This document shows positions 1 through 60,228 of a stretch of 64,000 nucleotides of DNA, one piece after another. The notes beneath the pieces are model-generated. The model saw nothing but the letters and a program-made list of their open reading frames with translations. It did not search any database and was not told where the DNA came from. The stretch lies in UHGV virus genome UHGV-0209617. One strand, 5' to 3'. The stretch is from a virus. Position 1 is the first letter of the stretch. Every line of letters begins with the position of its first letter. The position numbers were made by a program, and so were the translations under genes.

Positions 1-267
1 AAGGATATGAACCTGCCTACCAAGGAACTTATGAAGCTGACATTGGAAAAAAGAATAGCTCATGGAGGCCACCCGGTGCTTAGATGGATGATGGATAACA
101 TCTTCATAAAAACGGATCCGGCGGGAAATATAAAGCCGGACAAAGAAAAATCCACAGAGAAGATTGACGGTGTGGTAGCAACCATAATGGCACTGGACCG
201 AGCAATCCGCTGTGGATTGGATGATGATGAAAGCGTGTATGATGAACGTGGGATATTACTGTTGTAA
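1..267 (+). CDS. Phage terminase large subunit, C-terminal end (gene continues upstream of the window)
   Basis: Frame is open from nt 1; the last ~85 aa (KELMKLTLEK...DRAIRCGL...RGILL) closely match the C-terminus of the intact terL at 38563-40170. Confidence 0.7.
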   Translation, partial: KDMNLPTKELMKLTLEKRIAHGGHPVLRWMMDNIFIKTDPAGNIKPDKEKSTEKIDGVVATIMALDRAIRCGLDDDESVYDERGILLL

Positions 268-639
268 GGGTGGCATATCTGAAAGAGAAACCTTAGCATA
301 AGCACCATTCTTTTTATCTTCTGGATGTGGTTCAAGTCCAATCACTGTAATAGCTTTATGGTCAGGTCCATACACCCAATACATACGCATGGCGCGGCTT
401 GTTTTGTTTTCTAAATAAGATTGCCATACTTTCATTCCATATCTTTTTGTAAGATCAGATATTTCATGGGTGTTCAAACTAGGATAAAATTGGTTTTCCG
501 AGAGCAGCTTCATGGTTTTACCCCATTTTTTATAGAGTTGAACGTCTGACTTTGATATTGTGCCTTCAGCATTTGATTTTTTGAGTCTGGTCCATAAAGC
601 AAGTATTTCAGGAATACCCAAGTGAATAGAAAATTTCAT
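256..639 (-). CDS. Putative toxin of a two-gene toxin-antitoxin-like module (RelE/ParE-like C-terminal region; family uncertain)
   Basis: About 127 aa from ATG at 639; C-terminal MRMYWVYGPDHKAITVIGLEPHPE resembles the RelE/ParE-type core; 4-nt gap to the upstream small ORF. Confidence 0.35.
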   Translation of the reverse strand: MKFSIHLGIPEILALWTRLKKSNAEGTISKSDVQLYKKWGKTMKLLSENQFYPSLNTHEISDLTKRYGMKVWQSYLENKTSRAMRMYWVYGPDHKAITVIGLEPHPEDKKNGAYAKVSLSDMPPLQQ

Positions 640-643
640 AATA

Positions 644-889
644 TCAGAACTCCGATAAATCAATTGCTTCAGAAACATTTCCCACAGTTATATTTTTTAC
701 AGCATTATCCATCATTTTTAGGGTATTTGCGGATATTTCTGCAGGAACCACAAGCTCACGAGGTTCAAGAAGAATGAAGCCATTATCATATTCCTTAACA
801 TTGTAGTACTCATGAGAGGCACCTCTTAATGTAAGGCGTTTTTTGGCATCAAGATGTGCATTATAGTTTGTTCTTATAGCAGCTTCCAT
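644..889 (-). CDS. Putative antitoxin partner (small protein directly upstream of the toxin-like ORF)
   Basis: 81-aa ORF, same strand, immediately upstream of 256-639; classic antitoxin-toxin order. Confidence 0.35.
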   Translation of the reverse strand: MEAAIRTNYNAHLDAKKRLTLRGASHEYYNVKEYDNGFILLEPRELVVPAEISANTLKMMDNAVKNITVGNVSEAIDLSEF

Positions 890-985
890 AATTTTTACCT
901 CCGTTCATAATGGTGGGATTTCCCACTGTTGTATATATCTATTTTAAACTAAAAAGAAATTTTTTTCAAGAGTAAAATGTAGAGA

Positions 986-1203
986 AACGAATAGTTCATG
1001 GAGGCCACCCGGTGCTTAGATGGATGATGGATAATATTTTCATAAAAACGGATCCAGCGGGAAATATAAAACCGGACAAAGAAAAATCCACAGAGAAGAT
1101 TAACGGTGTGGTAGCAACCATAATGGCGCTAGACCGTGCAATCCGCTGTGGATTGGATAATAGTGAAAGTGTTTATGATGAGCGTGGAATATTACTTATC
1201 TGA
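986..1203 (+). pseudogene. Duplicated 3' fragment of the terminase large subunit gene (no 5' body)
   Basis: About 216 bp at roughly 90% identity to 52-267; translation MLRWMMDNIFIKTDPAGNIKPDKEKSTEKINGVVATIMALDRAIRCGL matches the terL C-terminus. Confidence 0.7.
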
Positions 1204-1587
1204 AAAAGAATGATGCTCAGATGGGTTCATATAAAGGGTAGCCGTTTTGACACCATATTTCTTTACGGTGCATCGTTCTTTCTGGGAAGTGTATCCAAGT
1301 ACATACTTGAACACATAGCCCATTAAAGCACCCATGCACTGGCTTTCACTAGGAGAAAATTTAAAGTCGGGTGCTGGATTCATGGTTCGTTCATATATCA
1401 GAAGAAGTGATTTTACCGGGGGAATCTCAAGGTCATTGGCAAATACAATGTTTCCCATATGTACTGGATTAGCAATTGTGTTAATACAGAAATTCCACAA
1501 AGCACCAGAATTAACAAAAGGGGTTGCAGTTTTATAGGTAGTAGAGAAATCGGAATTGATTGCTTTTATAATTTCGCTGGTATTCAT
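1192..1587 (-). CDS. Hypothetical protein (131 aa)
   Basis: ORF in the intergenic space between the terL fragment and the portal fragment; no recognisable motif. Confidence 0.4.
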   Translation of the reverse strand: MNTSEIIKAINSDFSTTYKTATPFVNSGALWNFCINTIANPVHMGNIVFANDLEIPPVKSLLLIYERTMNPAPDFKFSPSESQCMGALMGYVFKYVLGYTSQKERCTVKKYGVKTATLYMNPSEHHSFSDK

Positions 1588-1720
1588 ATTAAAACCTCAT
1601 AAAAATATAACAGACAAAATATTGATGGTTTTATTATAAGCGTTTACATTGCCATTGTCAATAGTGAACATACAAAAAAATAATGGTTTAATAAGATTGA
1701 TATAAAGGAGGCATCAGCCT

Positions 1721-2212
1721 ATGAATTTCTTTTCTAAACTGTTCCGTTCAGGGGACAAGCCGACAAATTTTTTATCTACCCATTGGCCGTTCCTTTGGGG
1801 GCAGACCATATCAGGGCGGTCGGTAAATGACAGAACCGCTATGCAGGTTACAGCTGTTTATGCCTGTGTCAGAATTCTGGCAGAAGCTATAGCTGGGTTG
1901 CCGCTTAATGTGTATCAGTACCGCCCAGATGGTAGCAAGGAAAAACTTTACAGCCATCCGCTTTACCATCTTCTGCATGATGAGCCAAATCCTGAAATGA
2001 CCAGCTTCATTTTTAGGGAAACCATGATGAGCCATCTTCTGCTCCATGGTAATGCCTATGCCCAGATTATTCGTAATGGCAGGGGAGAGGTTGTGGCTTT
2101 GTACCCATTGCTTCCAAACAAGATGGATGTGAGCCGGGATAACTCTGGAAGACTTTACTACACCTACACCAGAAATTCTGACGAGCCAAATGGCAGACAG
2201 AATTATGTTTGA
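1721..2212 (+). pseudogene. Truncated phage portal protein gene (N-terminal 163 codons only)
   Basis: MNFFSKLFRSGDKPTNF...MQVTAVYACVRILAEAIAGLPL...HDEPNPEMTSFIFRET aligns with the N-terminus of the 425-aa portal at 40890-42167 and ends prematurely. Confidence 0.75.
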
Positions 2213-2543: not shown

Positions 2544-3044
2544 TCAATCTAGATACTGGCTGAGGTCAGCATAATAAGCTGACTTCCAGAATAATCTTTT
2601 CAGAAATCCGTTGTCCCATTTCACCATGCTTTTGGTAATATTTTCTCCTGTTTTTTGAAGAACAACGCTGTCAAGCATTATTATCCTTGTATTATTCATG
2701 CTTAATGTGCGGAATTTGTAAATTGCAGGAGTTACCTTGGCGGGAGAACCATCAGGGTTGGCACCACCGCCAGTGTTATATACCAAGCAACCGACTATTG
2801 CATAATCGCCATCAATGTAGTAATTGCAACTGGATGGATCAATATAATATGCACTTGATTCGCTGGCTCCTACCATTGGGTACTTACCATAAAGCATACG
2901 ATCGGGGTGTTCTTCCTCATTCATAGGGATAATTCCCCAAGGCTTCAGTAAATCGTGGTTTGAATTGGTGATGTTGTAAGAAGCAAAGCATACATTTGCT
3001 ACAAGGGATAGCATTAACATAGTGATAAATAAGATTTTTTTCAT
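2544..3044 (-). CDS. Secreted hypothetical protein (N-terminal signal peptide)
   Basis: ATG at 3044 gives MKKILFITMLMLSLVANVCFA..., a signal-peptide-like N-terminus; SD-like GAGGAGA upstream on the minus strand. Confidence 0.6.
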   Translation of the reverse strand: MKKILFITMLMLSLVANVCFASYNITNSNHDLLKPWGIIPMNEEEHPDRMLYGKYPMVGASESSAYYIDPSSCNYYIDGDYAIVGCLVYNTGGGANPDGSPAKVTPAIYKFRTLSMNNTRIIMLDSVVLQKTGENITKSMVKWDNGFLKRLFWKSAYYADLSQYLD

Positions 3045-3780
3045 ATCAGTATTATCTCCTCTCATATAATGGTTATTTGTGGTTATAGTAACACAACATA
3101 TTACTGTTTTCACTTTATAGGAAAGTTCTAGATTCTTTATCGTGATAAAGGCTCTAGAATAATAAAATATGACACAGCAAACAGAAGAATTAGTCAAATA
3201 ATTCTTCAAAAGGATCATCTTCGTTTAAAAAGTAGTCCATGTCTAGAATATCTTCATCTGTCATTTGTTGAATTTCTTTTTTGCTGAAGCCCTCTGGTAG
3301 ACGTTTTAGGTATTTTTTCGTATTTCTGCTACATTTTTTGGATTCATTTTATCCCTCCTCACTATTATATATTAACAAGTGGGGAGGGATTTTTCCAGTT
3401 AGAATTAAATCCTCTCTTTTCTTTGAGATAAAATTCAACAAATGGAATATTGTGATGTTCGTGGTATAGGGCGATCATCTTCATTGATGTACGGCAGTGG
3501 GGACAAGATAGTGGATCATAGCCAAATGATACCATTATTCGACAACGCCATGATTCTAGAGATCGCATATAGTTTTGCTGTTCTGGAAAATTTAAAAGAG
3601 TAGTATATAAAGGTGGTATGTAATTATGAACAGGGAAGAAATAAAAAAGGCAGCTGGGAAAGATATTGGGTGCCTTATTTTTTTGCAGGAGATTTGGGAT
3701 TTATGTAGAATAATTAAGATAGGATAGTAGATACATAGGTAAATAAAACTAAGGCTATAGGTATGGGAGGAAATGAGAAT

Positions 3781-4326
3781 ATGTATAAAAGAATATTCAT
3801 AATGATTATCGTGTTGCAGGCACTTTTTATAGGGGTATGCTCTGCCAATTCGGGCAGATTAGCAGACATTGGAGCAGAAGTATTTAAAGAAAGAATAGCT
3901 GCAGTCTCATCTTGTCGAGTGACGGAATTTGTCATTAGTACCCCAACAGGTGTTATAGCAAATTCGCGTCCAGAAACAACGGAGTATGAGTTCCGCATTT
4001 TCAATACCTCAGACAATATGGTACTTTTTGATGTATATGTGAATCAAGAAGGGTATATTGACAGTATAGTAATAAGTGGCCCATTCGCTAATCAAACAAA
4101 TCGTAAATTTTTATCCGATCTTGTAGTTAAATCAATGCTTGTTATTGGCTTGAGTTATGATGAGATGAGGTGGTTAGTTAACAATGGTAGTAATCAAAGT
4201 AGGCTATACGAAGGTAGGGTATATTCTGAAAAATTACTTAGGGATGTTTATTACTCTTTATGCATAGAATCAAACGGTTTTTGTATAAATACCATAGACA
4301 AAGTGTCGTTTAAAGATAGGTTGTAA
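3781..4326 (+). CDS. Secreted protein, paralog family member 1 (unknown function)
   Basis: MYKRIFIMIIVLQALFIGVCSANSGRLADIGAEVF signal-peptide-like N-terminus; conserved VYVNQEGYIDSI and GRDVYY motifs shared with 7393-7959 and 8061-8633; GGGAGG upstream. Confidence 0.7.
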   Translation: MYKRIFIMIIVLQALFIGVCSANSGRLADIGAEVFKERIAAVSSCRVTEFVISTPTGVIANSRPETTEYEFRIFNTSDNMVLFDVYVNQEGYIDSIVISGPFANQTNRKFLSDLVVKSMLVIGLSYDEMRWLVNNGSNQSRLYEGRVYSEKLLRDVYYSLCIESNGFCINTIDKVSFKDRL

Positions 4327-4441
4327 TAAGGAGAGATGTTTTTAAGATAATAAGCTAGTAGGATGTGTAGAATACTATAAAATAGGTTAACGGATACATC
4401 GGTAAATAAAATTAAGGTTATATGTATGGTGGCCAGATGAT

Positions 4442-4740
4442 ATGATAAAAAGAGTATTTTTTACGTTTATCGTGCTGCAGATATTTTTATAGGTCCGTGC
4501 TATGCAAGTTCAGACAGATTAGCAGATATTGGAGCGGAGTTATTTAAAGAAAGAATTGTAGAAGATATACCTTTCAAGGTTGCAGATTTCAAAATAACAA
4601 ATGAAGCGACCGTTGCTAGAGAACAGCCACATATGGCTGGTGACTCTAAATACGAATTTATGGCAGTGCAGAATCAAAATGTAATGCTTATGATTGATGT
4701 TTATGTGAACCGAGAAGGTTACATAGATAGTATTATTAAC
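4442..4740 (+). pseudogene. Frameshifted and 3'-truncated copy of the secreted paralog family (closest to 8061-8633)
   Basis: Near-identical DNA to the 5' part of 8061-8633 but with one T missing in a T-run (5 T vs 6 T), giving a stop after 16 codons; homology ends near 4740 where the 536-aa ORF begins. Confidence 0.7.
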
Positions 4741-4754
4741 TGTGGGGAAAATAT

Positions 4755-6365
4755 ATGGATGAGAAGAATTTTATCAGATATGGGGAGAAAGCTATAGAAT
4801 ACCTACATATGGGAGATGAACAAGGTTTTTTTGAGGCCTTGGGGGTTATTAAACATGTTGGAAATAAAGACTACGCTAATATGCTAACATCACTCTATTT
4901 TTATAAGAAAAAGCAGTTTAGAAAATGTATGGACTGTTTAGAAAAAATAGCAGAATGCAAAAACGATAATTTGAAGGAGATGTTAACGGTATGGTATTGG
5001 GATTTTAAAATATGTTGTTTGGCAGAGCAAAAAAAGTTTTCTGAAATATCGAGTATTTTTTGTGAAGATAAAGGACTGTTTAGCGAAGATGATGAGATCA
5101 TAATGCAATATTCAAGCTACGTATATGCTAGATATCTTGCAATAAAAAGTGGATTTCAAAAAGATAAAAACACTGTATATTATCCTGGAATTTTGGGTAA
5201 GAATGTTATTCGTACAGAAGATCAGTTTATGTCTGTTATTTACAGAGAATTAGGTCGAGATTTACTAGATATACATTTAAATTATCATGCTCTTTTACAA
5301 TTGAAGAAGGCAAATGTTGAAAAGAACATTTGTAGGGAAATGAAGGAAAAATTGTTAGTCAAGGTACAATATATCTGTGATTTAGGTGACCAGAAATATT
5401 ATGCATTAACACCGCAAGTTGTTAAATACATGGAGTATATTACAAATATCATTACCAATGAAAAAAATTTAAATGAGGATAAACTTAATGATTTGATTAT
5501 TTCTTTATTTTCAGACGAAATTTTAATCCAAGATATAGACAATTGGTTATTTATGGTTGATTTATTTTCTGTAACGGCAGATAATGAAAAATTTATTAAT
5601 TTCTTTAGATGTTATGATCAATTTATACTTAAATGTCTAAGTAGAGATAATGAGATCGTAGCAAAAAAATTAATATGGATGTGTAATGACGAGAGATTTT
5701 CCTCATTAAAATATGAACATACAACCTTTAAAGATTATTGGGAACATAAGATTGAGCTGTATATGCCTGGGTTTATTGCAAATAGTAGAGTTTATTCATG
5801 TGATAAATATATTCTTGATAATTTATCAGAAAAGAGTAAATGGGCATATGAAGCAGCAATATGGCAGTATGAAAATGTTATGGAATATGGCAGTGAATAT
5901 ATGGATGCTGGTTTGTTGAGTCTAGCGTTTATGAGAGTGCTAGAAACAGAATTGAATGCTAGAGTAATAGCGCCTTTATCAAAAGCTATAAGTGAAGATA
6001 CAAAGGGAAAAGCTTTACTAGACAAATTATTAGTTGGGGCTAATAGTTACCATTATAAGTTTTTGAAAAAAACGAATAAGGGAGCTACATTAGGTCAAAT
6101 CGGGCATTTTCTTGAGGGAATTCGGAAAAAAAGTATCGCAGAATATTCCTGTTTTTATAATATTTTATGTAATAGCTTATTGAGTATTTCTGGAAAAGAG
6201 GCCATAGATGCAGGGATATTCGAAGAAATGACTAGCCAAAAACTAATTGATAAGTATAGAAATCCACCTGCACATTCTAAATATCTTCAAAAGTCAGAAG
6301 CAGTAAAGGGAAAACTATTTGTAGAAGATAGTTTGAGAAAACTATTTACATATATTAACCGATAA
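4755..6365 (+). CDS. Hypothetical protein, 536 aa, unknown function, no signal peptide
   Basis: Long uninterrupted AT-rich ORF beginning where the paralog pseudogene homology stops; no P-loop, nuclease or other recognisable motif. Confidence 0.65.
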   Translation: MDEKNFIRYGEKAIEYLHMGDEQGFFEALGVIKHVGNKDYANMLTSLYFYKKKQFRKCMDCLEKIAECKNDNLKEMLTVWYWDFKICCLAEQKKFSEISSIFCEDKGLFSEDDEIIMQYSSYVYARYLAIKSGFQKDKNTVYYPGILGKNVIRTEDQFMSVIYRELGRDLLDIHLNYHALLQLKKANVEKNICREMKEKLLVKVQYICDLGDQKYYALTPQVVKYMEYITNIITNEKNLNEDKLNDLIISLFSDEILIQDIDNWLFMVDLFSVTADNEKFINFFRCYDQFILKCLSRDNEIVAKKLIWMCNDERFSSLKYEHTTFKDYWEHKIELYMPGFIANSRVYSCDKYILDNLSEKSKWAYEAAIWQYENVMEYGSEYMDAGLLSLAFMRVLETELNARVIAPLSKAISEDTKGKALLDKLLVGANSYHYKFLKKTNKGATLGQIGHFLEGIRKKSIAEYSCFYNILCNSLLSISGKEAIDAGIFEEMTSQKLIDKYRNPPAHSKYLQKSEAVKGKLFVEDSLRKLFTYINR

Positions 6366-6519
6366 TGTATTTTTGTTATTCATATCAAAAATAAGAAAAC
6401 ATAGATAATATTTACAGAATATATAGTTTATTAAATGAACTATATAATACGACGCAATTAAAATATGTACTGGGTTGATTAACAATTTTATTTCAAAGTG
6501 ATGATAGGAGTGTTTAAAG

Positions 6520-7197
6520 TTGAGGAGAATATTTTCATATTTTTTAGCATTAATAATCATGTTATCGGCTACCACAGGAATGGCTGCTGATGACAGATGG
6601 GTATGTATAGAAGATGATGGTATAGGTCAATTCTATTTAGATTCCAAGACAACGTCATATGATTCAGCAGCAAATACAGTAAAGTTCTGGGTTAAATACG
6701 AAGAGAATTCCAAAATCGTAAATATGGATTACTATTTGGTGGATATCAGTAACACAAAATATGGTATTATGCGTTCAGCATTTTATCAAAATAAAACATA
6801 TCCGGAGATAAAGAATTATGAAAATGTGGTACCGCAAAATCCGATTTGGCCAGATGATATTATAGAGAAGGCAGCTAACATGGTATGTGATAATAACAAC
6901 GCTAAGCATATGTATCCTAGTGGTGTCGACAGGTGGCATTGGCTGTATTCCACTGAGCAGTGCACATACAATTATGCTCCTGGTATGGTAGTTGTAGATA
7001 AAGAAAAACGCACAGTGACAGTGTGGACGCAATCTGTATACCCGGAGCATGGAATTGGTGGTGTAACACGGTGGGTATGTTATTTTAATGAAAATATGGT
7101 GGAGCACACTAATAGCAGAGGTGTATATAAGCAGTATGTCTTGCCAGATACATTAGAGGAAGCTGTCTGGGAAAAAGCTGAGCCATATATGAAGTAA
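6520..7197 (+). CDS. Secreted hypothetical protein (TTG start, signal peptide)
   Basis: TTG preceded by AGGAG at 9-nt spacing; N-terminus RRIFSYFLALIIMLSATTGMAADD is signal-peptide-like. Confidence 0.55.
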   Translation: MRRIFSYFLALIIMLSATTGMAADDRWVCIEDDGIGQFYLDSKTTSYDSAANTVKFWVKYEENSKIVNMDYYLVDISNTKYGIMRSAFYQNKTYPEIKNYENVVPQNPIWPDDIIEKAANMVCDNNNAKHMYPSGVDRWHWLYSTEQCTYNYAPGMVVVDKEKRTVTVWTQSVYPEHGIGGVTRWVCYFNENMVEHTNSRGVYKQYVLPDTLEEAVWEKAEPYMK

Positions 7198-7392
7198 ATT
7201 ATTTATTTCATATATGGCCTATAGGTTAGAATTAAGGTCTAACTTTTTGAGGTTGGTACAACATAGGGGGAAATCTTTGCTGTCTTATTTTTTGTGCATG
7301 AAATTAGGAATTTATGTGGAATACTATAAAATATGTCAATAGATACATCAGTAAATAAGACTAAGGTTATAAGTATGGGAGGGGACCATAAT

Positions 7393-7959
7393 ATGCTTAA
7401 AAGAATATTCATAATGATTATCGTGTTGCAGGCATTTTTTATAGGGGTATGCTCTGCCAATTCGGGCAGATTAGCAGATATTGGAGCAGAAGTATTTAGA
7501 GGAAAAATGGTGGAGAGTACGAATTCTTTTGTGAGTGGATTAGAAATTAAAAAGCTATCAGGAGGAATGGCAAAGCTATATCCAGGAACAACATTATATA
7601 CATTTTTTATGTTTGATAATTTGAATACAGATAAAGTTGTCAGTGTTTCGGTATTTGTAAATCAAGAAGGTTATATTGATGCTATAGGCGTAGCTGGCTC
7701 AGGAGCAAGTGAAAGCAGTAGAGCGTTTTCGACAAATATTGTGGAAGAGTCTATGAGGGCTATTGGTTTAAGTAATGATGACATTAACTGCTTGACAACT
7801 AAAGGTATACAAGGGAAAAAATATCAAGGGGTAGTTTTTTCTGAAAATATGGGTAGAGACGTTTATTATACATTTTGGATGGGACCTAATGCTGTCCATT
7901 CAAGTATTATAGATAGAATGTCTTATACGAATAGGGGTAATTTGTTTAGAGCAAGTTAG
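7393..7959 (+). CDS. Secreted protein, paralog family member 2
   Basis: MLKRIFIMIIVLQAFFIGVCSANSGRLADIGAEVF...FVNQEGYIDAI...GRDVYY; conserved ~70-nt upstream leader shared with the copy at 3781. Confidence 0.7.
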   Translation: MLKRIFIMIIVLQAFFIGVCSANSGRLADIGAEVFRGKMVESTNSFVSGLEIKKLSGGMAKLYPGTTLYTFFMFDNLNTDKVVSVSVFVNQEGYIDAIGVAGSGASESSRAFSTNIVEESMRAIGLSNDDINCLTTKGIQGKKYQGVVFSENMGRDVYYTFWMGPNAVHSSIIDRMSYTNRGNLFRAS

Positions 7960-8060
7960 TAAAATATACACAAAATGTATGTCACGGCTATGTATAGCTT
8001 AAGGGAGATAGGTATAAAGAAATAAATTTTTGAGTATATTTATGTAAAGGGGAAGATGAT

Positions 8061-8633
8061 ATGATAAAAAGAATATTTTTTACGTTTATCGTGCTGCAGA
8101 TATTTTTTATAGGGCCATGCTATGCAAGTTCAGACAGATTAGCAGATATTGGAGCGGAGTTATTTAAAGAAAGAATTGTAGAAGATATACCTTTTGAGGT
8201 TACAGATTTCAAAATAGCAAATGAAGCGTCCGTTGCTAGAGAACAGCCACATATGGCTTGTGACTCTAAATACGAATTTATGGCAGTGCAGAATCAAAAT
8301 GTAATGCTTATGATTGATGTTTATGTAAACCGAGAAGGTTACATAGATAGTATTATTATATGTGGGCCATCCGTCGAAAAAAGAAATAGCAAGTTTTTAA
8401 CACTCGTATTAGCAGAGTCTATGAAGGCTATAGGATTAAATATGGATGAGATAATGTGGTTATGTTCTAAAGGTTCAATATCAGGAAATACATATGAGGG
8501 GAGTGTTTTTTCTACAGGAATGGGAAGAACTGTCTATTATAGTATGAGTTTAACATCGGATGGCTTTGGTATTAATAGAATCGATAGAATGTCTTTAACA
8601 GATAGGTTTACAAGATCAATGTTAGCTAACTAA
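8061..8633 (+). CDS. Secreted protein, paralog family member 3
   Basis: MIKRIFFTFIVLQIFFIGPCYASSDRLADIGAELF...VYVNREGYIDSI...GRTVYY; SD-like AAAGGGGAAG upstream. Confidence 0.7.
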   Translation: MIKRIFFTFIVLQIFFIGPCYASSDRLADIGAELFKERIVEDIPFEVTDFKIANEASVAREQPHMACDSKYEFMAVQNQNVMLMIDVYVNREGYIDSIIICGPSVEKRNSKFLTLVLAESMKAIGLNMDEIMWLCSKGSISGNTYEGSVFSTGMGRTVYYSMSLTSDGFGINRIDRMSLTDRFTRSMLAN

Positions 8634-8702
8634 GTTTAGATGATTGGCCTTTGGTTTGTGTTTTAGGTTGTTTACTAATAATTTTGCGTGTTAAATGGCA
8701 AT

Positions 8703-8736
8703 AAGGCAGCAGGGAAAATATCCTTGCTGCTTTATT
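8703..8736 (+). terminator. Rho-independent terminator candidate after paralog 3
   Basis: Imperfect hairpin GGCAGCAGGG / CCTTGCTGC followed by a T-rich run. Confidence 0.45.
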
Positions 8737-8988
8737 GTAGACAATTAAACAGAATGGCTAAGGAAAATAGATATTAATTCATTTTTACAGAACGTATGTA
8801 GATATGAGAGGTAGGCAGAAATGAACTTTCTTTTTTATGGGAAATTTGGGATAAATTTGTGTGATTTGCTCCAGTATTTTTCATTTTCATACTTTTTCAA
8901 AGCTTATTATGGTACAATATTATAAATAGATAATGCCTTAACTTATACTTTGAAGTGTTAATTGCTAGCTGAAATGGGTGTGATATAA

Positions 8989-9231
8989 ATGAGCGTTGTA
9001 GTAAAAAAAATAGGTGATATGTCTGTAAAAGTAATCAGTGCAGACGATATTGCTTCAATCCGCCGGGAAATAAGTAGTAGAGATATGGAAATGGATAAAA
9101 GAGCTGTTGTAGCCGTAAATTCAGCTATAAATAGGGCGCAGGTATGTAATAAGCCTATAGCTAAATATGATTTGGCAAGTGGAAGGGCATATTTAGAATA
9201 TGCTGATGGGAGTAGGGATTATGTCAACTAA
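8989..9231 (+). CDS. Hypothetical small protein (80 aa) overlapping the start of the zeta-like kinase pseudogene
   Basis: ORF with an extended -10-like TGgTACAAT upstream; its 3' end overlaps the ATG at 9221 by 11 nt. Confidence 0.5.
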   Translation: MSVVVKKIGDMSVKVISADDIASIRREISSRDMEMDKRAVVAVNSAINRAQVCNKPIAKYDLASGRAYLEYADGSRDYVN

Positions 9232-9773
9232 GAAGCAGATGATATTGGTGTTAGTTGGTTCCAATGGCTCTGGAAAAAGTACTATTACCAAATTCTTTGA
9301 TGTTGTTGGCGAATATACTAATGCTGATGATATTGTAGCAGCCACTGGAATGGATAATCTTGCTGCAGCACGAATGGCTGATGAAAAATGTATTCTGCTA
9401 TAAAAGAAAAACGGGATTTTACCTTTGAAACGGTACTATCTTCAGAGTATAAGTTTGATATATTAAATAAGGCTAAAGCAGAGGGTATTTTATTAAGTGT
9501 GTATTTGTATTGACCGTGAATCCCTACATAAATGTAGCTAGAGTGCAGATGCGTGTAGCTAATGGTGGTCATTTTGTGGAAAAAGATAAGATTTTATCAA
9601 GATACTATAAATCATTGACAAATATAAAGAAACTGTTAGAAATATGTGATATTATGCATGTTTATGATAATACCGTTACCCCAACGCGTATCATACGAAA
9701 GCATAAGGATGATATTTCTACTTTTGCTAGTGAAATATGGAGCGAAGAGCAGATTCTAAAACTTATGTATTAA
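9221..9773 (+). pseudogene. Zeta-toxin-like P-loop kinase gene disrupted by at least two frame changes
   Basis: Walker A LVGSNGSGKST in the first segment, ...RDFTFETVLSSEYKFDILNKAKAEGILLSVYLY in a second frame, ...RVQMRVANGGHFVEKDKILSRYY in a third; stops at 9403 and about 9511. Confidence 0.55.
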
Positions 9774-9815
9774 GATGGTTTATGTGTTTGTATTTGTGTA
9801 AAAATAAGTGAGGAT

Positions 9816-10085
9816 ATGATTTATCCATTTATGACATTGGAAGATGATACAGAAATTACTAATTCTGAAATGCAGGCAAATGGTGAGGTAAAGGTGTATG
9901 TTGAAACACCAGATGAAAAGGATTGTTTCCATAGTATGATATGTTATCTTCCTGATTATCGTGTTGAAAAGGTAGAGGGGTATTCAGAAGAAGTGGAAAA
10001 GTATCTTGATTTTATTCGCAAGGCTGCGAATCTTATCCTTGAATTTTCTCAGGAAGGTGGATTTAACCATGCCAAAGCTGTTTAA
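9816..10085 (+). CDS. Hypothetical protein (89 aa)
   Basis: ORF only; no recognisable motif. Confidence 0.4.
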   Translation: MIYPFMTLEDDTEITNSEMQANGEVKVYVETPDEKDCFHSMICYLPDYRVEKVEGYSEEVEKYLDFIRKAANLILEFSQEGGFNHAKAV

Positions 10086-10380
10086 GATTGGTTGCCTCAT
10101 ATTCCAGATACATTAAGAAACATTATGCGTATTTTTAGCAATGGGGCAGAATAGGGCATAACGGGGCATTTTAGAGCATTTCAGGAAAGGAAAATGGCAT
10201 GAATAAGATTTTGTTTATCTGCCACGGCAGCGTATAAGGATAGAGTCGATAAACCGCATGGCTACGGGACTTTTGCAACGGTTAAATGATATTCATATAC
10301 TGAAAGCATACCGTTTATGCTGGGTCTTGTATATTCTATTGTGAAACGGTTACATTGAATTATTAAACGATACATATACA

Positions 10381-10399
10381 TTAACGATTTAATCGTTAA
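10381..10399. promoter_or_regulatory. Perfect 9-1-9 palindrome TTAACGATT-T-AATCGTTAA (operator-like)
   Basis: Read directly; lies just upstream of a hairpin plus T-run. Confidence 0.4.
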
Positions 10400-10411
10400 A
10401 TAATACCTTTG

Positions 10412-10439
10412 AGACTCCCGGCTGTGCCTGGGAGTTTTT
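10412..10439 (+). terminator. Rho-independent terminator candidate
   Basis: ACTCCC...GGGAGT stem followed by TTTTT. Confidence 0.45.
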
Positions 10440-10488
10440 CAATATAGGAGAAGGCGAATTTACTTCATAGGAAATGTTCTTATAGCTG

Positions 10489-10517
10489 TTGCCGTTGTAC
10501 TATTGACTTGCTATAAT
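10489..10517 (+). promoter_or_regulatory. Sigma-A-type promoter candidate (TTGCCG, 17-bp spacer, extended -10 TGcTATAAT)
   Basis: Hexamer spacing and extended -10 read directly; 49 nt upstream of the ATG at 10566. Confidence 0.5.
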
Positions 10518-10565
10518 TTAATAAATGACAATATTAATTTAATGAAGATACGGAGATTTGAGCAT

Positions 10566-11384
10566 ATGGAAAAGAATCTTGATGAGGCTGTTAAATGGTT
10601 GCGTAAGGCAGCAGAGCTTGGGCATAAGGATGCAATGGTAAAGCTGGGCGAGCTACTCAGTGGTACAGAGGAGCCATTGACAAAACTATTGGAAAAATCA
10701 TATATGGAAGGCTATGCAGATGGCAAAAATGGCAAGGCTAATAAATATTTCAAGGAAGCATATATTAAATCTACTATGGATAGAGCAGGTTTTGTTAATG
10801 TTAAGGTTGGAGATATAATCACATTTGGCAATTATTGGCAGGATAAAGATAAGTCAGCTGGTAAGCAGCCAGTAGAGTGGCAGGTGCTTGATGTCAAGGA
10901 TGGCAAGGCATTAGTTATTAGTAAATATGGTTTAATAAATCATAAATATAATAAAGAATGGACGGATGTTACATGGGAAACATGTACCTTGAGAAAATGG
11001 CTGAATGATACCTTTATTAAGGATATTTTCTCCGCAGAGGAAATGAAGGCTGTTATGTTATCAGATGTTAGTGCAGATAAAAATCCTAATTATAACACAA
11101 ATCAGGGAAATGACACTAAGGATAAATTGTTCCTGCTGAGTATAAAGGAAGTGGAGCAATATTTTGTTAGTGATGAAAAAAGACTGTGTAAGCCAACAGA
11201 ATATGCAGTTAACAACGGAGCTTATGAGAATAACCGTGGGCATAGTTGGTGGTGGCTACGCTCTGCTGGTGGCTATAGTAGCGATGCGGCGTATGTGGTC
11301 AGTTATGGCTGCGTCTACTACAGTGGCCGTAGTGTGTTCAGCGACGATGGTTCTGTGCGCCCAGCTTTTTGGCTAAATCTTTAG
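10566..11384 (+). CDS. Sel1-like repeat plus DUF6273-like domain protein
   Basis: N-terminal DEAVKWLRKAAELGHKDAMVKLGELL is Sel1/TPR-like; C-terminal W-rich block (WQVLDV...WETCTLRKWLN...WWWLRSAGGYS...VRPAFWLNL) is typical of the DUF6273 pattern as I recall it; start chosen at the ATG with a GGAG upstream. Confidence 0.6.
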   Translation: MEKNLDEAVKWLRKAAELGHKDAMVKLGELLSGTEEPLTKLLEKSYMEGYADGKNGKANKYFKEAYIKSTMDRAGFVNVKVGDIITFGNYWQDKDKSAGKQPVEWQVLDVKDGKALVISKYGLINHKYNKEWTDVTWETCTLRKWLNDTFIKDIFSAEEMKAVMLSDVSADKNPNYNTNQGNDTKDKLFLLSIKEVEQYFVSDEKRLCKPTEYAVNNGAYENNRGHSWWWLRSAGGYSSDAAYVVSYGCVYYSGRSVFSDDGSVRPAFWLNL

Positions 11385-12357: not shown

Positions 12358-12386
12358 TTGTAATTACAGCTTAAATATGCTAAAAT
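12358..12386 (+). promoter_or_regulatory. Promoter candidate for the R-M operon (TTGTAA, 17 bp, TAAAAT) overlapped by palindrome TGTAATTACA; second GTAATTAC palindrome at 12306-12313
   Basis: Hexamers and palindromes read directly; the palindrome overlaps the -35. Confidence 0.4.
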
Positions 12387-12631
12387 ATAAGATGAAAGAC
12401 TATATGGAAATGGAGGAACTACAGTTGAGCGAAATGAAAAGAAAAATGCCTATGGAACATTTGAATATTGGTGAGTTCAACCGTGGGCAATCTTCAAAAC
12501 TAATCCGTAACTTGGTGGAAAAAGATAATGCTGCATTTATACAAAAAAATGGGAAGCCAATAGCCGTTGTTATCTCCTATGAACGATACGAGAGACTGCT
12601 TGAGTCTGGCATTGATATCAATGAGTTCTGA
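12377..12631 (+). CDS. Phd/YefM-fold small protein, first gene of the R-M operon (candidate controller); true start may be the in-frame TTG at 12425 or ATG at 12434-12452
   Basis: NIGEFNRGQSSKLIRNLVEKDNAAFIQKNGKPIAVVISYERYERLLE matches the Phd/YefM N-terminal pattern; ends 11 nt before the methyltransferase ORF; no toxin partner follows. Confidence 0.55.
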   Translation: MLKYKMKDYMEMEELQLSEMKRKMPMEHLNIGEFNRGQSSKLIRNLVEKDNAAFIQKNGKPIAVVISYERYERLLESGIDINEF

Positions 12632-12642
12632 GTATTCAAAAC

Positions 12643-14298
12643 ATGATTAAGGAGGTAACGGAGATGGTTGCGAAAAATTATGGTGTTGTTTACACACCGA
12701 ATAGACTGGCTGAGTTCGCAGCAGAACTTTTATATAGAGAGGCAGCAGAAACTAATACAGAAATAAAGTCGGTATTGGATCCTGCGTGTGGCGAATGCGC
12801 ATTGCTATGTGCTGCAAAGAAATATTTGAATGGTAATGTGAAATATTTGGGAATTGATGTCGATAAAGAAGCAATAATGAATGTTGAGGATGATTTTGAA
12901 ATTCTTTATAATGATTCAATTCTTCCGCGAAATGTAAAAAAACAGACGGCAGAATATTGGAAGAGCAAGATGCCAGTAATATCTGCTATAATTGCAAATC
13001 CACCGTGGAGTTCCGAAAAAATATATGTGCGAGAAGAATTGCAGAGTGCCGGTTTCTCGTTGACCACAGGACAATATGATAGCTTTGTGCTATTTATTGA
13101 GTTGGCATATAATCTGCTTGATGATGGAGGATACTTTTCGTTTATTATCCCCGATTCGTTATTTGATGCACAAAACGAAAAACTAAGAAGATTTTTGACT
13201 GAAAAGATGCAAATCAAAGTGATTGCCAGACTTGGAGAGAAGATTTTTGAAGAAGTGAATAGAGCAACTACTGTTATTGTTTGCAGAAAAGAAAAGCCAG
13301 TCAAAGATTCTGTCACCCACTGTTTCAGACTTACTACGGAAGAAAGAAGAAAGTTTTTGAATTCGAATCAGAGTTTGTTAAACTTTTACAACGAAGATGT
13401 GCATGATGTGTTGCAGGGGCGATTTGCTGAAAACGCTGCCTGTAACTTTGACGTTGATACGCGCACTGATGAAGAGGCATTGTTGGCTAAAATTAAGAAG
13501 CAGTCTATAAGTTGGGAGGATATATTCATTTTTGGTCGAGGTGTTGAGATATCCAAAACAGGAAAGGTCGTATTTTGTCCTTCGTGTGGTTATGCCCAAG
13601 GGTATAAAAAATCACAAATGGCTGAAGGAAAAAAAGAATGTACGAACTGTGGCAGTGAGATATCGGTTACTACGGCAAGTGTTCAAAATGTTATTTCACA
13701 AAGTCAAACGCCACAGACTGTTCAGATATATGTTGGAGAGAATGTTCGGAGATATGGAATAACAGGAGAATGCTATATCAAACCCAACATTCCCGGAATC
13801 AATTATAAAAATCGTGCGATGTACAACCCACCAAAACTGTTGGTGAGAAAGACTGGACTTGGAATATATGCATCGATTGATTATACGGGAAGCATGACAA
13901 GTCAGGCTGTATATATTTTGAAATTTAAAAACAGTCAACATAAGGCTCCGTTGGAATATTATCTGGCATTGCTTAACTCACGAGTGGTCTACTATTTTTA
14001 TTTGAAAGTATATGGAGAAAATGAATGGAAGTCCCATCCGTACTTTACGAAACAGATTATTTATTCTCTGCCTATTAGAGAATATGAGGATAGTGAGTTA
14101 GATAAACAGATCATTAAAGTGGCATCGGAATTGGCGCATAAATATGAATATGTCAAGGATGTTCAGCTTGAGAAGTTGGTAATGAAAAAGTATGGTCTGT
14201 CAGAGACCGAAAGCAATATGGTTTATGGTGAGATGAATCGTCTGCCTGACTTGAGTGCGATTAACAATATGAAAGTTGAGGTGGAAGCGAATGTATAG
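12643..14298 (+). CDS. N6-adenine DNA methyltransferase, gamma-class order (motif I then NPPW), with zinc ribbon and C-terminal recognition domain; probable start ATG at 12664
   Basis: VLDPACGECALL (motif I-like), IIANPPWS (motif IV), CPSCG...CTNCG zinc ribbon; AAGGAGGT 8 nt before the ATG at 12664. Confidence 0.85.
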   Translation: MIKEVTEMVAKNYGVVYTPNRLAEFAAELLYREAAETNTEIKSVLDPACGECALLCAAKKYLNGNVKYLGIDVDKEAIMNVEDDFEILYNDSILPRNVKKQTAEYWKSKMPVISAIIANPPWSSEKIYVREELQSAGFSLTTGQYDSFVLFIELAYNLLDDGGYFSFIIPDSLFDAQNEKLRRFLTEKMQIKVIARLGEKIFEEVNRATTVIVCRKEKPVKDSVTHCFRLTTEERRKFLNSNQSLLNFYNEDVHDVLQGRFAENAACNFDVDTRTDEEALLAKIKKQSISWEDIFIFGRGVEISKTGKVVFCPSCGYAQGYKKSQMAEGKKECTNCGSEISVTTASVQNVISQSQTPQTVQIYVGENVRRYGITGECYIKPNIPGINYKNRAMYNPPKLLVRKTGLGIYASIDYTGSMTSQAVYILKFKNSQHKAPLEYYLALLNSRVVYYFYLKVYGENEWKSHPYFTKQIIYSLPIREYEDSELDKQIIKVASELAHKYEYVKDVQLEKLVMKKYGLSETESNMVYGEMNRLPDLSAINNMKVEVEANV

Positions 14299-15349
14299 AT
14301 ATATAGGAAACAAATCAAAGCTGACTCCATACATTCTTGATAGGGTGGAACAGCTTATTGGAAAAACAGGAATTGTTGCTGACATTATGGCTGGAACAGG
14401 AACTGTGGCATTAGAATTGAGAAAAGCAGGTTATTCGGTTATCGCATCTGATGTAATGACCTATTCGTACCATCATTTGATGGTTAATCTTTGCTTAGAT
14501 TCAGCTCCTTCTTTTTCTGGGCTTGTGAATCATGGAGCAATAGGCAAGAATGAGGTGGATGCATATGGTGCAATCCTGACTTATTTAAATTGCATTGAAC
14601 CCAAAGAAGGTTTTTTCTTCAAGGAATTTTCTCCGGGTGGAACACCGCAGAATGGTTGCGACCCGAGAAAATATTTCACTACGGAAAATGCAAAGAAAAT
14701 TGATGCGATTAGAGAAAAAATAAATGAGTGGATTGATAATGGATATGTGAGCAAAGCTGAAGAATCGCTTTTAAAACATACTCTTATTATGGCAGTAAAC
14801 GAGGTTGCCAATATATCTGGAACTTACGGATATTTTTTGGCTGATTTCAAAAAGAATGCCAATGCACAGATTGATTTAAAACCTGTGGAATTTTGTTCTG
14901 TGAATTCAACTGGTCACATGGTAAAATTGGGATTTGCTGAAAATTTAGCTGCAACAATTACAGTTGATTTGTGCTACATCGACCCTCCGTATATGAAGAG
15001 ACAGTATGCTGCGAATTATCATATTCTGGAAACCATTGCACGAGGAGATTTCCCTGATGCTGTTGGTAAAAGTGGCTTGCGTGACTGGTGGGAGCAGCAC
15101 TCTAAATTGTGTACCAAAACACGAGGATTACAATCGTTTGAAAAGATATTAGGTGATATGCATTGCCCGAAATTTCTGATTAGCTACAGTGAGGATGGTT
15201 TGTTTACGCTGGGGCAATTAGAAGAATGTTTTAGCAAGTTTGGAACTGTTGACGTTCAAGAAATTGATTACAATCGATTTAGAAGCAATGATAGCAAGTT
15301 GCCTAAAAAACTGAAGGAATATTTGATTTCTATAGAAAGGCAGGTATAA
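14291..15349 (+). CDS. D12-class (Dam-like, alpha-order) N6-adenine DNA methyltransferase
   Basis: RYIGNKSKL N-terminal motif, ADIMAGTGTV (motif I), CYIDPPYM (motif IV); ATG overlaps the upstream stop (ATGTATAG). Confidence 0.85.
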   Translation: MYRYIGNKSKLTPYILDRVEQLIGKTGIVADIMAGTGTVALELRKAGYSVIASDVMTYSYHHLMVNLCLDSAPSFSGLVNHGAIGKNEVDAYGAILTYLNCIEPKEGFFFKEFSPGGTPQNGCDPRKYFTTENAKKIDAIREKINEWIDNGYVSKAEESLLKHTLIMAVNEVANISGTYGYFLADFKKNANAQIDLKPVEFCSVNSTGHMVKLGFAENLAATITVDLCYIDPPYMKRQYAANYHILETIARGDFPDAVGKSGLRDWWEQHSKLCTKTRGLQSFEKILGDMHCPKFLISYSEDGLFTLGQLEECFSKFGTVDVQEIDYNRFRSNDSKLPKKLKEYLISIERQV

Positions 15350-15353
15350 GTGA

Positions 15354-17024
15354 ATGGAGTGCATTGAAAGAATATTTTACAGAAAGATTAATCCTTCTGA
15401 TTTCAAAAAGTTGTATGATATTGACAAACCAGAAGGTGGCGGTGGTCAGACATACTTGGAAGCCGCTGGTATTTCAAATGAAAAAATCGTTGATTTCCTT
15501 TCCTATGCGGAGGTTACAAACAGTCCTTTGCCAGATGAAACAAGGTCTGTTTATACATTCAATGCCTATGTTTTGGGCGATTCAAAGGGTAAATGTTCGT
15601 TTGTAGAATTTGCACCTCGCAAAGGAAGAAATAACTATCGTATAAGCCGTCAGAACATGAAATATAAACATCCGGCATGGAGTTTGGATAATGGATTTCC
15701 CGAACCATCAAAAGGTGATGATGGCGAATACACATCTGCAGGCGATTTTGTGGGAATCATTGATAATCTTGTTATTCTTATCATAAGAACTACAAATCGG
15801 CGTTATTATGCAGGTTTTGTAAATATAGCGACAATGCCAGAGAACTGGCCACACAATATTGGCTTAGAGGGCATTTTTAGTGGTGAACGCAGAGATGTAC
15901 TAAAAATGGATGCGTATAAACTACAGTTTGTTAATGATGCCTGTAATCCATTCGGTGATTATGTCCCAACAATCGAAGAATGTAATCGAGCGACTACTGG
16001 TTGCAATGTGCTTTTGTACGGAGTTCCCGGAGCAGGAAAGAGTTGGACAATTGAACACGAATATTGTGCCGATGAAGGGTGTATGGAGCGATTGGTTTTC
16101 CATCCGGATTATATGTATTCGGATTTCGTTGGACAAATTTTGCCTGTAGTAAGGGACGATGACAAGGTTCGTTATGAGTTTACGCCGGGTCCGTTTACCA
16201 AATTATTAAAAAAAGCATATTGGAATACAGAACAGTCTTTTTACCTTATAATAGAAGAAATAAATCGTGGTAATGCACCAGCGATATTCGGTGAAATATT
16301 TCAGCTTTTGGATAGAAAAGATGAAGACGAAATAGATGAAAATAGGGAGATTCTCTACAAAAAAGGCACAAGTGAGTATGGAATAACAAATGCCAATATT
16401 GCACGAATCGTTTATGGCGATGAAAACCATAAGGTTCGAATTCCTGCAAATATGTCTATTTTGGGTACAATGAATACTTCTGACCAAAATGTTTTTACAT
16501 TAGACACAGCATTTCAGAGAAGATGGATTATGAGAATGATTCCGAATTCATTTGATAACCATAAGTTCGCAGACAAGAAGATTTTGGATACTGATATTTC
16601 CTGGAGACAGTTCTGTGAAGCAATTAATGAGGAAATTTTGCGTAGAAACAACATCACATCTTCTGAGGATAAGCGACTTGGGGCATATTTTATCTCGGCT
16701 TCGGATTTGGAGATGAAACCAATCACAGACGGGATGAGCGAAAAAGAAAAAATCCAAGTGGAGCATAGCAACAGCAGATTTGCAGAAAAAGTATTGAAAT
16801 ATTTATGGGATGATGCTTTCAAATTTTCCCATCAAGATACATTTAACACAAGACAGTTTGGTAGTCTTGAAAAAGTTATCGAAGGCTTTATGAATCCTGC
16901 CAAGCCTAAAAATGAGCGTTTTCGTGTATTCAATGAGAACCTTCGTAAAATGATTTTGGATGGAGTAACAGCAGAATCAAACGAGGTTTCTGATGATGAC
17001 AGCGAAGGCTCACAGGAATCTTAA
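15354..17024 (+). CDS. McrB-like AAA+ GTPase restriction subunit with an N-terminal domain of about 200 aa that I cannot assign
   Basis: LLYGVPGAGKSW (Walker A), LIIEEINRGNAPAIFGEIFQLLDR (McrB-type IDEINRAN-like motif), ILGTMNTSDQN (NTxD-type motif). Confidence 0.85.
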   Translation: MECIERIFYRKINPSDFKKLYDIDKPEGGGGQTYLEAAGISNEKIVDFLSYAEVTNSPLPDETRSVYTFNAYVLGDSKGKCSFVEFAPRKGRNNYRISRQNMKYKHPAWSLDNGFPEPSKGDDGEYTSAGDFVGIIDNLVILIIRTTNRRYYAGFVNIATMPENWPHNIGLEGIFSGERRDVLKMDAYKLQFVNDACNPFGDYVPTIEECNRATTGCNVLLYGVPGAGKSWTIEHEYCADEGCMERLVFHPDYMYSDFVGQILPVVRDDDKVRYEFTPGPFTKLLKKAYWNTEQSFYLIIEEINRGNAPAIFGEIFQLLDRKDEDEIDENREILYKKGTSEYGITNANIARIVYGDENHKVRIPANMSILGTMNTSDQNVFTLDTAFQRRWIMRMIPNSFDNHKFADKKILDTDISWRQFCEAINEEILRRNNITSSEDKRLGAYFISASDLEMKPITDGMSEKEKIQVEHSNSRFAEKVLKYLWDDAFKFSHQDTFNTRQFGSLEKVIEGFMNPAKPKNERFRVFNENLRKMILDGVTAESNEVSDDDSEGSQES

Positions 17025-17040
17025 AGCGAGGTGAGCGACA

Positions 17041-59616: not shown

Positions 59617-60036
59617 ATGAGAAAATCATTCTGGTTTGTGCTGCTGTTATTGCTCTTGTGTGTGCCGCAGCTTTCCTTTGCTGCAGAGAGGACATACCAA
59701 GTGACGGAGACAGAGCTGACGAGGTTAGAACAGAACTTGACGGAGCTATCCGAAATGAACAGCAAGCAATCAATGAACTTAGAACAGCAGAAGATACAGC
59801 TTCAGAACTCGGATTTGCAGTTGAAGCAGGCCGAAGAGAAGTACAGTCTGCTATCCAGTCAAATGAAGAACTTGGAGAAGGAAATGCTAGAGCAGCAGGA
59901 CTCATTAGAGAATGCCAGGAAATCCTTCGAACAGTTCGCCAAAGAGGAACAATTGAAGAGAGATAAGCTGAAGCGTGAAAAGAATATAGGATACTGGCTT
60001 GCAGGGATACTAGCTGTAGTATGTATTGCCAGATAA
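59617..60036 (+). CDS. Signal peptide + coiled-coil + C-terminal membrane anchor protein (unknown function)
   Basis: MRKSFWFVLLLLLLCVPQLSFAAE signal-like N-terminus; heptad-like Q/E/K/L-rich middle; hydrophobic C-terminus IGYWLAGILAVVCIAR. Confidence 0.6.
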   Translation: MRKSFWFVLLLLLLCVPQLSFAAERTYQVTETELTRLEQNLTELSEMNSKQSMNLEQQKIQLQNSDLQLKQAEEKYSLLSSQMKNLEKEMLEQQDSLENARKSFEQFAKEEQLKRDKLKREKNIGYWLAGILAVVCIAR

Positions 60037-60203: not shown

Positions 60204-60228
60204 ATAAGCACGGTTGGAGGTGATTGCC

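Follow-up and report, generated by a model that had tools for sequence, protein, structure and literature searches.

Exported paralogs in a decayed prophage remnant probably form two copies of a two-gene moron cassette

The subject of this analysis is a small family of paralogous genes for exported-type proteins carried by a 64,000-nucleotide stretch of the virus genome UHGV-0209617 (the window). A first-pass annotation, made from the letters alone, had described three intact genes and one disrupted copy. The three intact open reading frames (ORFs), all on the plus strand, were confirmed: A (3781-4326, 181 aa), C (7393-7959, 188 aa) and D (8061-8633, 190 aa). The start of A is an ATG behind a GGGAGG Shine-Dalgarno site. 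In a three-way alignment the proteins share 47-49% amino acid identity and 61 invariant columns, and pairwise BLASTP among them gave 40-48% identity with E values of 1e-43 to 1e-56. A scan of the whole window with a family hidden Markov model and tblastn found exactly four copies, the fourth being the disrupted copy, B (4442 to ~4746, plus strand). The internal motifs reported earlier are approximately right: the first reads VYVNQEGYIDSI in A, VFVNQEGYIDAI in C and VYVNREGYIDSI in D, and the second, given as GR[DT]VYY, is GRDVYY in C and GRTVYY in D but LRDVYY in A.

Copy B is a pseudogene, both frameshifted and truncated. It corresponds to the first ~305 nt of D, with 302 of 317 aligned nucleotides identical (~95%), and lacks the 3′ part. 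The lesion is a 1-nt deletion in a T-run (T5 where T6 is expected; window 4480-4490), and the resemblance to D ends at ~4746, nine bases ahead of the start of an ORF of 536 aa (4755). Since the same frameshifted and truncated copy is present in an independent sample (L038), this is not an assembly error. A neighbour-joining tree of close relatives separates two types, P1 (A, C, the P1 gene of L007, P0007 and P0008) and P2 (D, B, the P2 genes of L001 and L007, and L037). Wherever the context is visible the order is P1 then P2, with the exception of L081, where an IS30-like transposase gene comes after P1 and no trace of P2 could be detected. An obligate pairing of P1 and P2 is weakened by this P1-only case. 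From the two types and their order, the window contains two cassettes, A with the pseudogene B and C with D.

Comparison with sibling prophages defines the limits of these cassettes. In L001-L008 and L081 the paralog genes lie after an Amidase_3 endolysin gene and a gene of 88 aa (intact in L001, L007 and L081), and are followed by a Sigma70_r4_2-like gene, a Tn916-type Xis gene and a tyrosine integrase gene. Two otherwise collinear prophages, L047 and L049, have an empty site consisting of the 88-aa gene, one terminator and the sigma-like gene. In L007 and L001 an insert of ~1.5 kb has copies of that terminator on either side and is laid out as a promoter-like site (TTGCAG, 17 nt, TAGAAT), an untranslated region (UTR) of ~70-100 nt, P1, a spacer of ~100 nt and P2. 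The terminator hairpins, which bracket the insert in L007 and follow D in the window, fold at -22 to -28 kcal/mol with z-scores of -6 to -9. The GC content of the cassette is 0.33 against 0.43 for the flanking phage and host DNA in L007 and L001, and is 0.326 over window positions 3560-8740. The second cassette of the window (7273-8736) aligns collinearly with the L007 cassette over the full length of the latter (9213-10687; 70% identity). It ends in a hairpin at 8692-8740 (plus strand) which folding and comparison with L001 identify as an intact copy of the 3′ terminator (-28.2 kcal/mol, z -9.1; 98% identity with the terminator that precedes the L001 cassette).

The site is not reserved for these genes. 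In the intact prophage of the window the same slot is occupied by AbiEi/AbiEii (60214-61664; PADLOC E 4e-63 and 2.5e-93), with a GC content of 0.37 compared to 0.46 for the phage. AbiEi/AbiEii also occupy it in L040-L045, and in L048 it contains an HNH-like ORF of 358 aa and a Sel1-repeat protein (L048 4602-5552). Because other genes occupy it elsewhere, this is a variable cargo slot, and the paralog pair is one of the cargos. A further Sel1-repeat protein, with a DUF6273 domain (E 2.6e-30) and an N-terminus similar to that of the L048 Sel1-like protein, is encoded at window 10503-11384.

We read the locus as two copies of a prophage moron, an autonomous accessory cassette located between the lysis genes and the integration module, and give this reading a probability of about 0.6. 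A moron is expected to be present in some and absent from other collinear phages, to deviate in base composition, and to have its own promoter and intrinsic terminator; filled and empty sites and the GC contrast are observed here, and promoter and terminator are predicted. What the first-pass annotation missed, and what is the main point, is that the paralogs are a duplicated two-gene prophage moron cassette. Each unit would comprise a sigma-70-type promoter-like site, an unstructured UTR of ~70 nt, P1, P2 and an intrinsic terminator. It would be carried by Anaerovibrio siphophage-like prophages and be dispensable for phage growth. Morons and lysogenic-conversion cassettes of temperate phages are well known and include bor and lom of lambda, the HK97-type morons and the lysin-to-att cargo of Gram-positive siphophages. 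Like these, the insert occurs in some but not all otherwise collinear phages, has its own promoter-like site, flanking terminators and deviating base composition, is located at the lysis/integration junction and encodes products with envelope-targeting signals. Unlike the morons described, its proteins have no sequence or clear structural relationship to any moron product, and it consists of a pair of diverged paralogs, duplicated here, in what appears to be a diderm Firmicute host.

In the window the two units are eroded to different degrees. The first contains, in order, an eroded terminator, the promoter-like site, A and the pseudogene B. It is preceded by a relic of the phage DNA found before the cassette in the siblings (3581-3654, plus strand; 97% identical to L007 8875-8948, the DNA before the 88-aa gene). 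The 88-aa gene itself has been deleted, so that its first codons run directly into the eroded copy of the cassette-flanking terminator (3647-3682, plus strand), which aligns with the L007 and L001 terminators and has a hairpin of -11.5 kcal/mol (z -1.2), compared to -22 to -28 kcal/mol in intact copies. The predicted promoter follows (3683-3711, plus strand); it was read from the sequence, overlaps a site listed by a pattern scan and is identical in the window, L001, L007 and L081. The AU-rich 5′ UTR of A (3712-3780, plus strand) includes the Shine-Dalgarno sequence at 3765-3770 and has no conserved structure. The leader of B (4366-4441, plus strand) retains the TAGAAT hexamer and a UTR like those of A and C, and its -35 region is not conserved. 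Upstream of C (7266-7392, plus strand) are another eroded terminator copy (7266-7293), a weakened promoter-like site (GTGCAT, 17 nt, TGGAAT; 7294-7322) and a UTR with a Shine-Dalgarno sequence. The leader of D is of a different type, a short P1-P2 intergenic spacer (7960-8060, plus strand) as in L007 and L001.

Between the two units, the place of the 3′ half of B is taken by the 536-aa ORF (4755-6365, plus strand; GC 30%), whose product is predicted to be cytoplasmic and matches no family, and by an ORF of 225 aa with a signal peptide (6520-7197, plus strand), which belongs to the same inserted segment and is unrelated in sequence to the paralogs. B would have been destroyed when these two genes came in. 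Fragmented versions of the 536-aa protein are found on other contigs. Within its C-terminus lies YRNPPAHS, an Rx4H motif which by eye is reminiscent of HEPN nucleases; Pfam returned nothing for it at E ≤ 10.

The conserved 5′ leaders described in the first-pass annotation are real as shared DNA and somewhat longer than the ~70 nt proposed. Upstream of A and C, identity is 81% over positions -140 to -71 and 78% over -70 to -1. The similarity noted for B also stands over its proximal ~75 nt, the -70 to -1 segment being shared with A and C at 78-79%. This DNA is composed of the eroded copy of the upstream intrinsic terminator, the sigma-70-like promoter and the AU-rich UTR with its Shine-Dalgarno sequence. 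Identity of ~78-81% across three leaders of the window, together with conservation in L001, L007 and L081, might be taken to indicate a cis-regulatory RNA (a riboswitch, thermometer or attenuator) controlling the paralogs. We reject this as highly improbable. The minimum free energies of the single leaders are only -6 to -9 kcal/mol, with z-scores of -1.3 to +0.6 against shuffled sequences, and the structure differs from copy to copy. The consensus fold (-0.84 kcal/mol) is a single A-U hairpin of six pairs over the start codon with no meaningful covariation. Rfam gave no match in the leaders, its only hit at the locus being an unrelated, sub-threshold one at 4996-5040. In addition, the leader is less conserved (78%) than the adjoining signal-peptide codons (95% for A and C; 97% for B and D), and the only strong hairpins at the locus are the flanking terminators. 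The leaders are most parsimoniously duplicated promoter and unstructured 5′ UTR DNA, the alternative which the first-pass annotation had itself named and which the fold and alignment tests bear out; a reading of the leaders as regulatory RNA is not supported. A leader 19-mer, TTGCAGGAGATTTGGGATT, had 25 matches in IMG/VR and GTDB genomes, of which the four most promising (the single IMG/VR match and three contigs of Lachnospiraceae/Clostridiales genomes) proved coincidental, lying inside unrelated sequence.

Where the products act depends on their export signal and on the host. By a heuristic scan, every member has an n-region with 2-3 basic residues, an h-region of 12-15 hydrophobic residues (mean Kyte-Doolittle 2.2-3.4) and a c-region with an invariant C-x-A; small residues at -3 and -1 agree with processing by signal peptidase I (SPase I). 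The ORF called for P0004 has a longer N-terminal extension, and the hydrophobicity heuristic detected no second transmembrane-like segment in any member. The signal peptide noticed at the outset is thus present throughout the family, and we read it as a probable Sec/SPase I signal with an unexplained invariant cysteine. The residue preceding this cysteine is V, P, Q, N or T, so that the canonical lipobox [LVI][ASTVI][GAS]C of lipoproteins is lacking; a neighbouring gene in L081 has a canonical L-T-G-C lipobox. C-x-A is possibly a non-canonical lipobox. It may also be a signal-peptide feature typical of the host lineage rather than of the family, since the signal peptides of two exported ORFs, unrelated to the paralogs and carried by elements of this kind, also end in C-F-A (NVCFA|SY and FTCFA|NE). 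Small exported ORFs unrelated to the paralogs occur at window 2544-3044 (minus strand) and 6520-7197 and at L061 5191-5625; sequence comparison of the 225-aa and 166-aa exported ORFs revealed no relation to the paralog family.

The host is probably Anaerovibrio, of the Negativicutes, because L001 is flanked by host genes whose products are identical to Anaerovibrio proteins and the attB neighbourhood is shared: the intact prophage of the window (~20-64 kb, GC 0.46) has the same chromosomal neighbourhood in other contigs. Several window proteins are in nr as third-party "Caudoviricetes sp." entries (TPA). Negativicutes are diderm Firmicutes and possess an outer membrane, so the most likely destination of the exported proteins is the periplasm. 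The family can be called exported, as its N-terminal features support, and in such a host "secreted" most likely means periplasmic. The Sec signals would deliver the P1 and P2 proteins to the periplasm or envelope. This location bears on the suggestion that the genes encode host-interaction or colonisation factors, acquired by lysogenic conversion and released onto the animal host or onto surfaces. Their position at the lysin-att junction, their export signals and their origin from gut metagenomes (pig gut, for example) would suit such a role. It is nevertheless unlikely, given the diderm host inferred, a plain Sec signal unaccompanied by any feature for crossing the outer membrane (canonical lipobox, beta-barrel, autotransporter or other) that would carry the proteins beyond the periplasm, and the absence of similarity to any known effector in the searches made.

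Location directly downstream of the endolysin region and envelope targeting might equally suggest spanin-like accessory proteins which help the phage breach the diderm outer membrane at lysis. We reject this possibility and give it almost no weight: the genes are absent from L047 and L049, siblings in which the lysis genes are the same; they come with a promoter-like site of their own, are bounded by terminators and have a foreign GC content; and the proteins are predicted to be globular, with alpha+beta structure and no coiled coil, C-terminal transmembrane segment or canonical lipobox. Elsewhere in the window, an ORF of 139 aa directly after the GH25 endolysin gene (59617-60036) begins with a signal, LLLLLLCVPQLSFA, continues with a long coiled-coil-like stretch and ends in a hydrophobic anchor. 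This predicted architecture resembles that of a unimolecular spanin, which would fit a phage of a diderm Firmicute.

An AlphaFold2 (AF2) model of D, built from a 12-sequence alignment, has a pLDDT of 88 and a pTM of 0.82 and consists of a detached, low-confidence N-terminal helix followed by a compact alpha+beta domain. On this model the P1 and P2 products are best explained as alpha+beta proteins of ~165 aa with a cleavable Sec signal peptide. Foldseek searches of PDB and BFVD returned nothing significant; a PDB "CAP REPEAT" match (E 1.3e-7, 0 stretches) was treated as an artefact, and an internal duplication of the BLIP-like tandem type was discarded when hhalign of the two halves was negative (probability 0.1). 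The DUF4309/YjgB-like secreted alpha+beta domains (PDB 4ygt, 4h0a, 4ifa) are among the closest known systems compared. No match to the paralogs was found in Pfam (including searches with the mature domains at E ≤ 10), PHROGs, NCBIfam or PADLOC, nor in GenBank phages by tblastn or blastn, and IMG/VR and the GTDB species representatives yielded no relative. Among 5.8 billion proteins a one-query search recovered 5 clusters and a 15-sequence profile 14, and among 1.84 billion representatives there were 17 matches, two of them repeat-protein artefacts. P0009 (2389 aa, 21 stretches) and P0017 (1089 aa, 7 stretches) are false positives due to internal repeats. None of the members found in these large searches is annotated, and the literature yielded nothing on the family or on Anaerovibrio prophages. 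A distant branch, with 20-31% identity to A, C and D, forms a tandem array of three genes on a 2.8-kb contig (L011 3-2300). Its subtypes alternate, the genes a and c being 57% identical to each other and b 21-24% identical to both.

Small exported paralogs in arrays invite comparison with orphan immunity genes, whose products would neutralise periplasm-acting toxins of competitors, such as bacteriocins or contact-dependent effectors, the different paralogs covering different toxin variants. This too seems unlikely. Neither toxin nor polymorphic-toxin domains were found in neighbouring ORFs, the structural scores do not rise above the noise seen for small alpha+beta folds, and sequence provides no link to any immunity family.

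Retention of the diverged copies had been attributed to diversifying selection. Alignment and dN/dS analysis do not bear this out. Between genes dN/dS is 0.13-0.72, with dS saturated for the comparisons among A, C and D. In pooled windows of 25 codons it ranges from 0.26 to 0.85, never exceeding 1, and is highest in residues ~50-80 and in the C-terminal third. As dN/dS is never above 1 and inactivated copies are common, diversifying selection is not shown; values below 1 across the deep comparisons indicate constraint on the intact copies. One pair of P2 alleles is nearly identical, with 3 synonymous and 11 non-synonymous differences (omega 0.92, on small numbers). Divergence is also unevenly distributed along the genes, dS between A and C being 0.04 over codons 1-36 and 1.3 over the remainder. 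This mosaic, and the ~95% identity of B and D over all that B retains, point to gene conversion or recent exchange at the 5′ end. The number and mosaicism of the paralogs probably arose as recombination or gene conversion acted on the leader, signal-peptide and terminator segments, which are conserved. A similar pattern is known from the cp32 prophages of Borrelia, which carry paralogous Erp and Mlp lipoprotein families with conserved upstream regions and leader peptides. There, as here, prophage-borne exported paralogs have 5′ flanks and signal-peptide codons far more conserved than the mature part, a pattern which in our genes is consistent with recombination at the 5′ end. However, sequences, hosts and genome organisation are unrelated, and the Erp and Mlp proteins are lipoproteins of the cell surface whose host ligands are known.

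Inactivated copies include, besides B, a frameshifted P1 in L007 and L008, caused in L007 by a shortened A-run at the gene start (L007 9342-9360) and recurring in L008, and a P1 with an in-frame deletion in L001-6. The homopolymer frameshifts, in the T-run of B and the A-run of L007 P1, might possibly represent phase variation. With the missing P2 of L081 these make at least four independent inactivation or loss events. Together with the omega of 0.92 between close alleles and the tiny size of the family, they could mean that the genes are near-neutral, decaying cargo, spread by recombination at conserved flanks and heading for loss. We find this rather unlikely, since three ORFs have stayed intact in a remnant whose structural genes are lost, omega lies at 0.13-0.72 across a divergence that is saturated, motifs are invariant down to 20-25% identity and the fold is confidently predicted from the 12-sequence alignment. 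A constrained, fast-evolving cargo with high turnover fits the sequence data.

Both cassettes are surrounded by TerL C-terminal fragments, a portal fragment, toxin-antitoxin-like genes and an LlaJI-type restriction-modification operon, and the locus sits in a decayed prophage remnant that kept or accumulated accessory genes. Identity of the TerL fragments (7-267 and 1012-1203), whether between the two or with the intact terL at 39904-40160, is 77-82%, and an N-terminal portal fragment lies at 1721-2212; these fragments (window 1-2212) are the remains of a second prophage. A toxin-antitoxin-like pair is encoded on the minus strand at 256-889. The window is the terminal part of a 154,734-nt ENA contig, which stops ~420 nt upstream of it, inside terL. 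Downstream, positions 12377-18321 include a PhdYefM-like antitoxin gene followed by the LlaJI-type operon, with an N6_Mtase/Eco57I/TaqI_C methylase, a D12 methylase, an AAA_5 protein and RE_LlaJI. A segment of ~100 nt (10130-10229) is 95-97% identical both to L007 13324-13419, just downstream of the integrase gene, and to L001 7946-8044, the start of a host LMWPc gene. It is probably what is left of an attachment site at the end of the decayed prophage, and suggests that several elements are stacked at one attB. L007 and L041, from another sample, lie on a single 127.6-kb contig as two tandem prophages at one attB, the first with the paralog cassette and the second, the counterpart of the intact prophage of the window, with AbiE. 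This tandem mirrors the arrangement of the window before its first prophage decayed.

What a lysogen might gain from the moron can be approached through its context. The cassette would be expressed in the lysogen and confer a benefit at the level of the envelope. Our best guess, of low confidence, is that it excludes superinfecting phages or protects against an antagonist acting on the envelope, because AbiE shares the slot and the neighbourhood is rich in defence genes. Envelope proteins with superinfection-exclusion activity are known from several phages: Ltp of Streptococcus thermophilus phage TP-J34, Sie2009 of lactococcal phages, and Cor and Llp of T1- and T5-like phages. They resemble the paralogs in their small size, in being encoded by prophages, in having an export or anchor signal at the N-terminus and in their presumed expression in the lysogen, and the occurrence of defence genes (AbiE) in the same slot of a sibling prophage can be counted as a further likeness. 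No sequence or fold homology to the family was detected for Ltp, Sie, Cor or Llp. Ltp, Cor and Llp are canonical lipoproteins, whereas the paralogs have no canonical lipobox, and the genes of Ltp and Sie2009 are located between integrase and repressor, those of the paralogs after the lysin. A bolder and more doubtful proposal is that P1 and P2 constitute an undescribed two-component, periplasm-acting protection module of phages infecting diderm Firmicutes. The two proteins might, for example, form a heterodimer that blocks genome injection by related phages; they would be exported via the unusual invariant C-x-A, and their specificity would be renewed by swaps of the mature domain at the leader and signal-peptide sequence.

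The main effect of these results is to turn a reading of conserved leaders and diversifying paralogs into the ordinary explanation of a duplicated moron. The kind of feature, a prophage moron for exported proteins, is well known; the protein family itself is unannotated and very narrowly distributed. Prophage cargo slots are where lysogens acquire defence and fitness genes, and one such slot is now delimited in prophages of Anaerovibrio, a little-studied diderm Firmicute of gut and rumen, where it may be empty or contain AbiE, an HNH-like gene with a Sel1-repeat gene, or the exported pair. Being unannotated, narrowly distributed and without close structural relatives, the family is a reasonable, though not urgent, candidate for a new form of envelope-level exclusion or protection.

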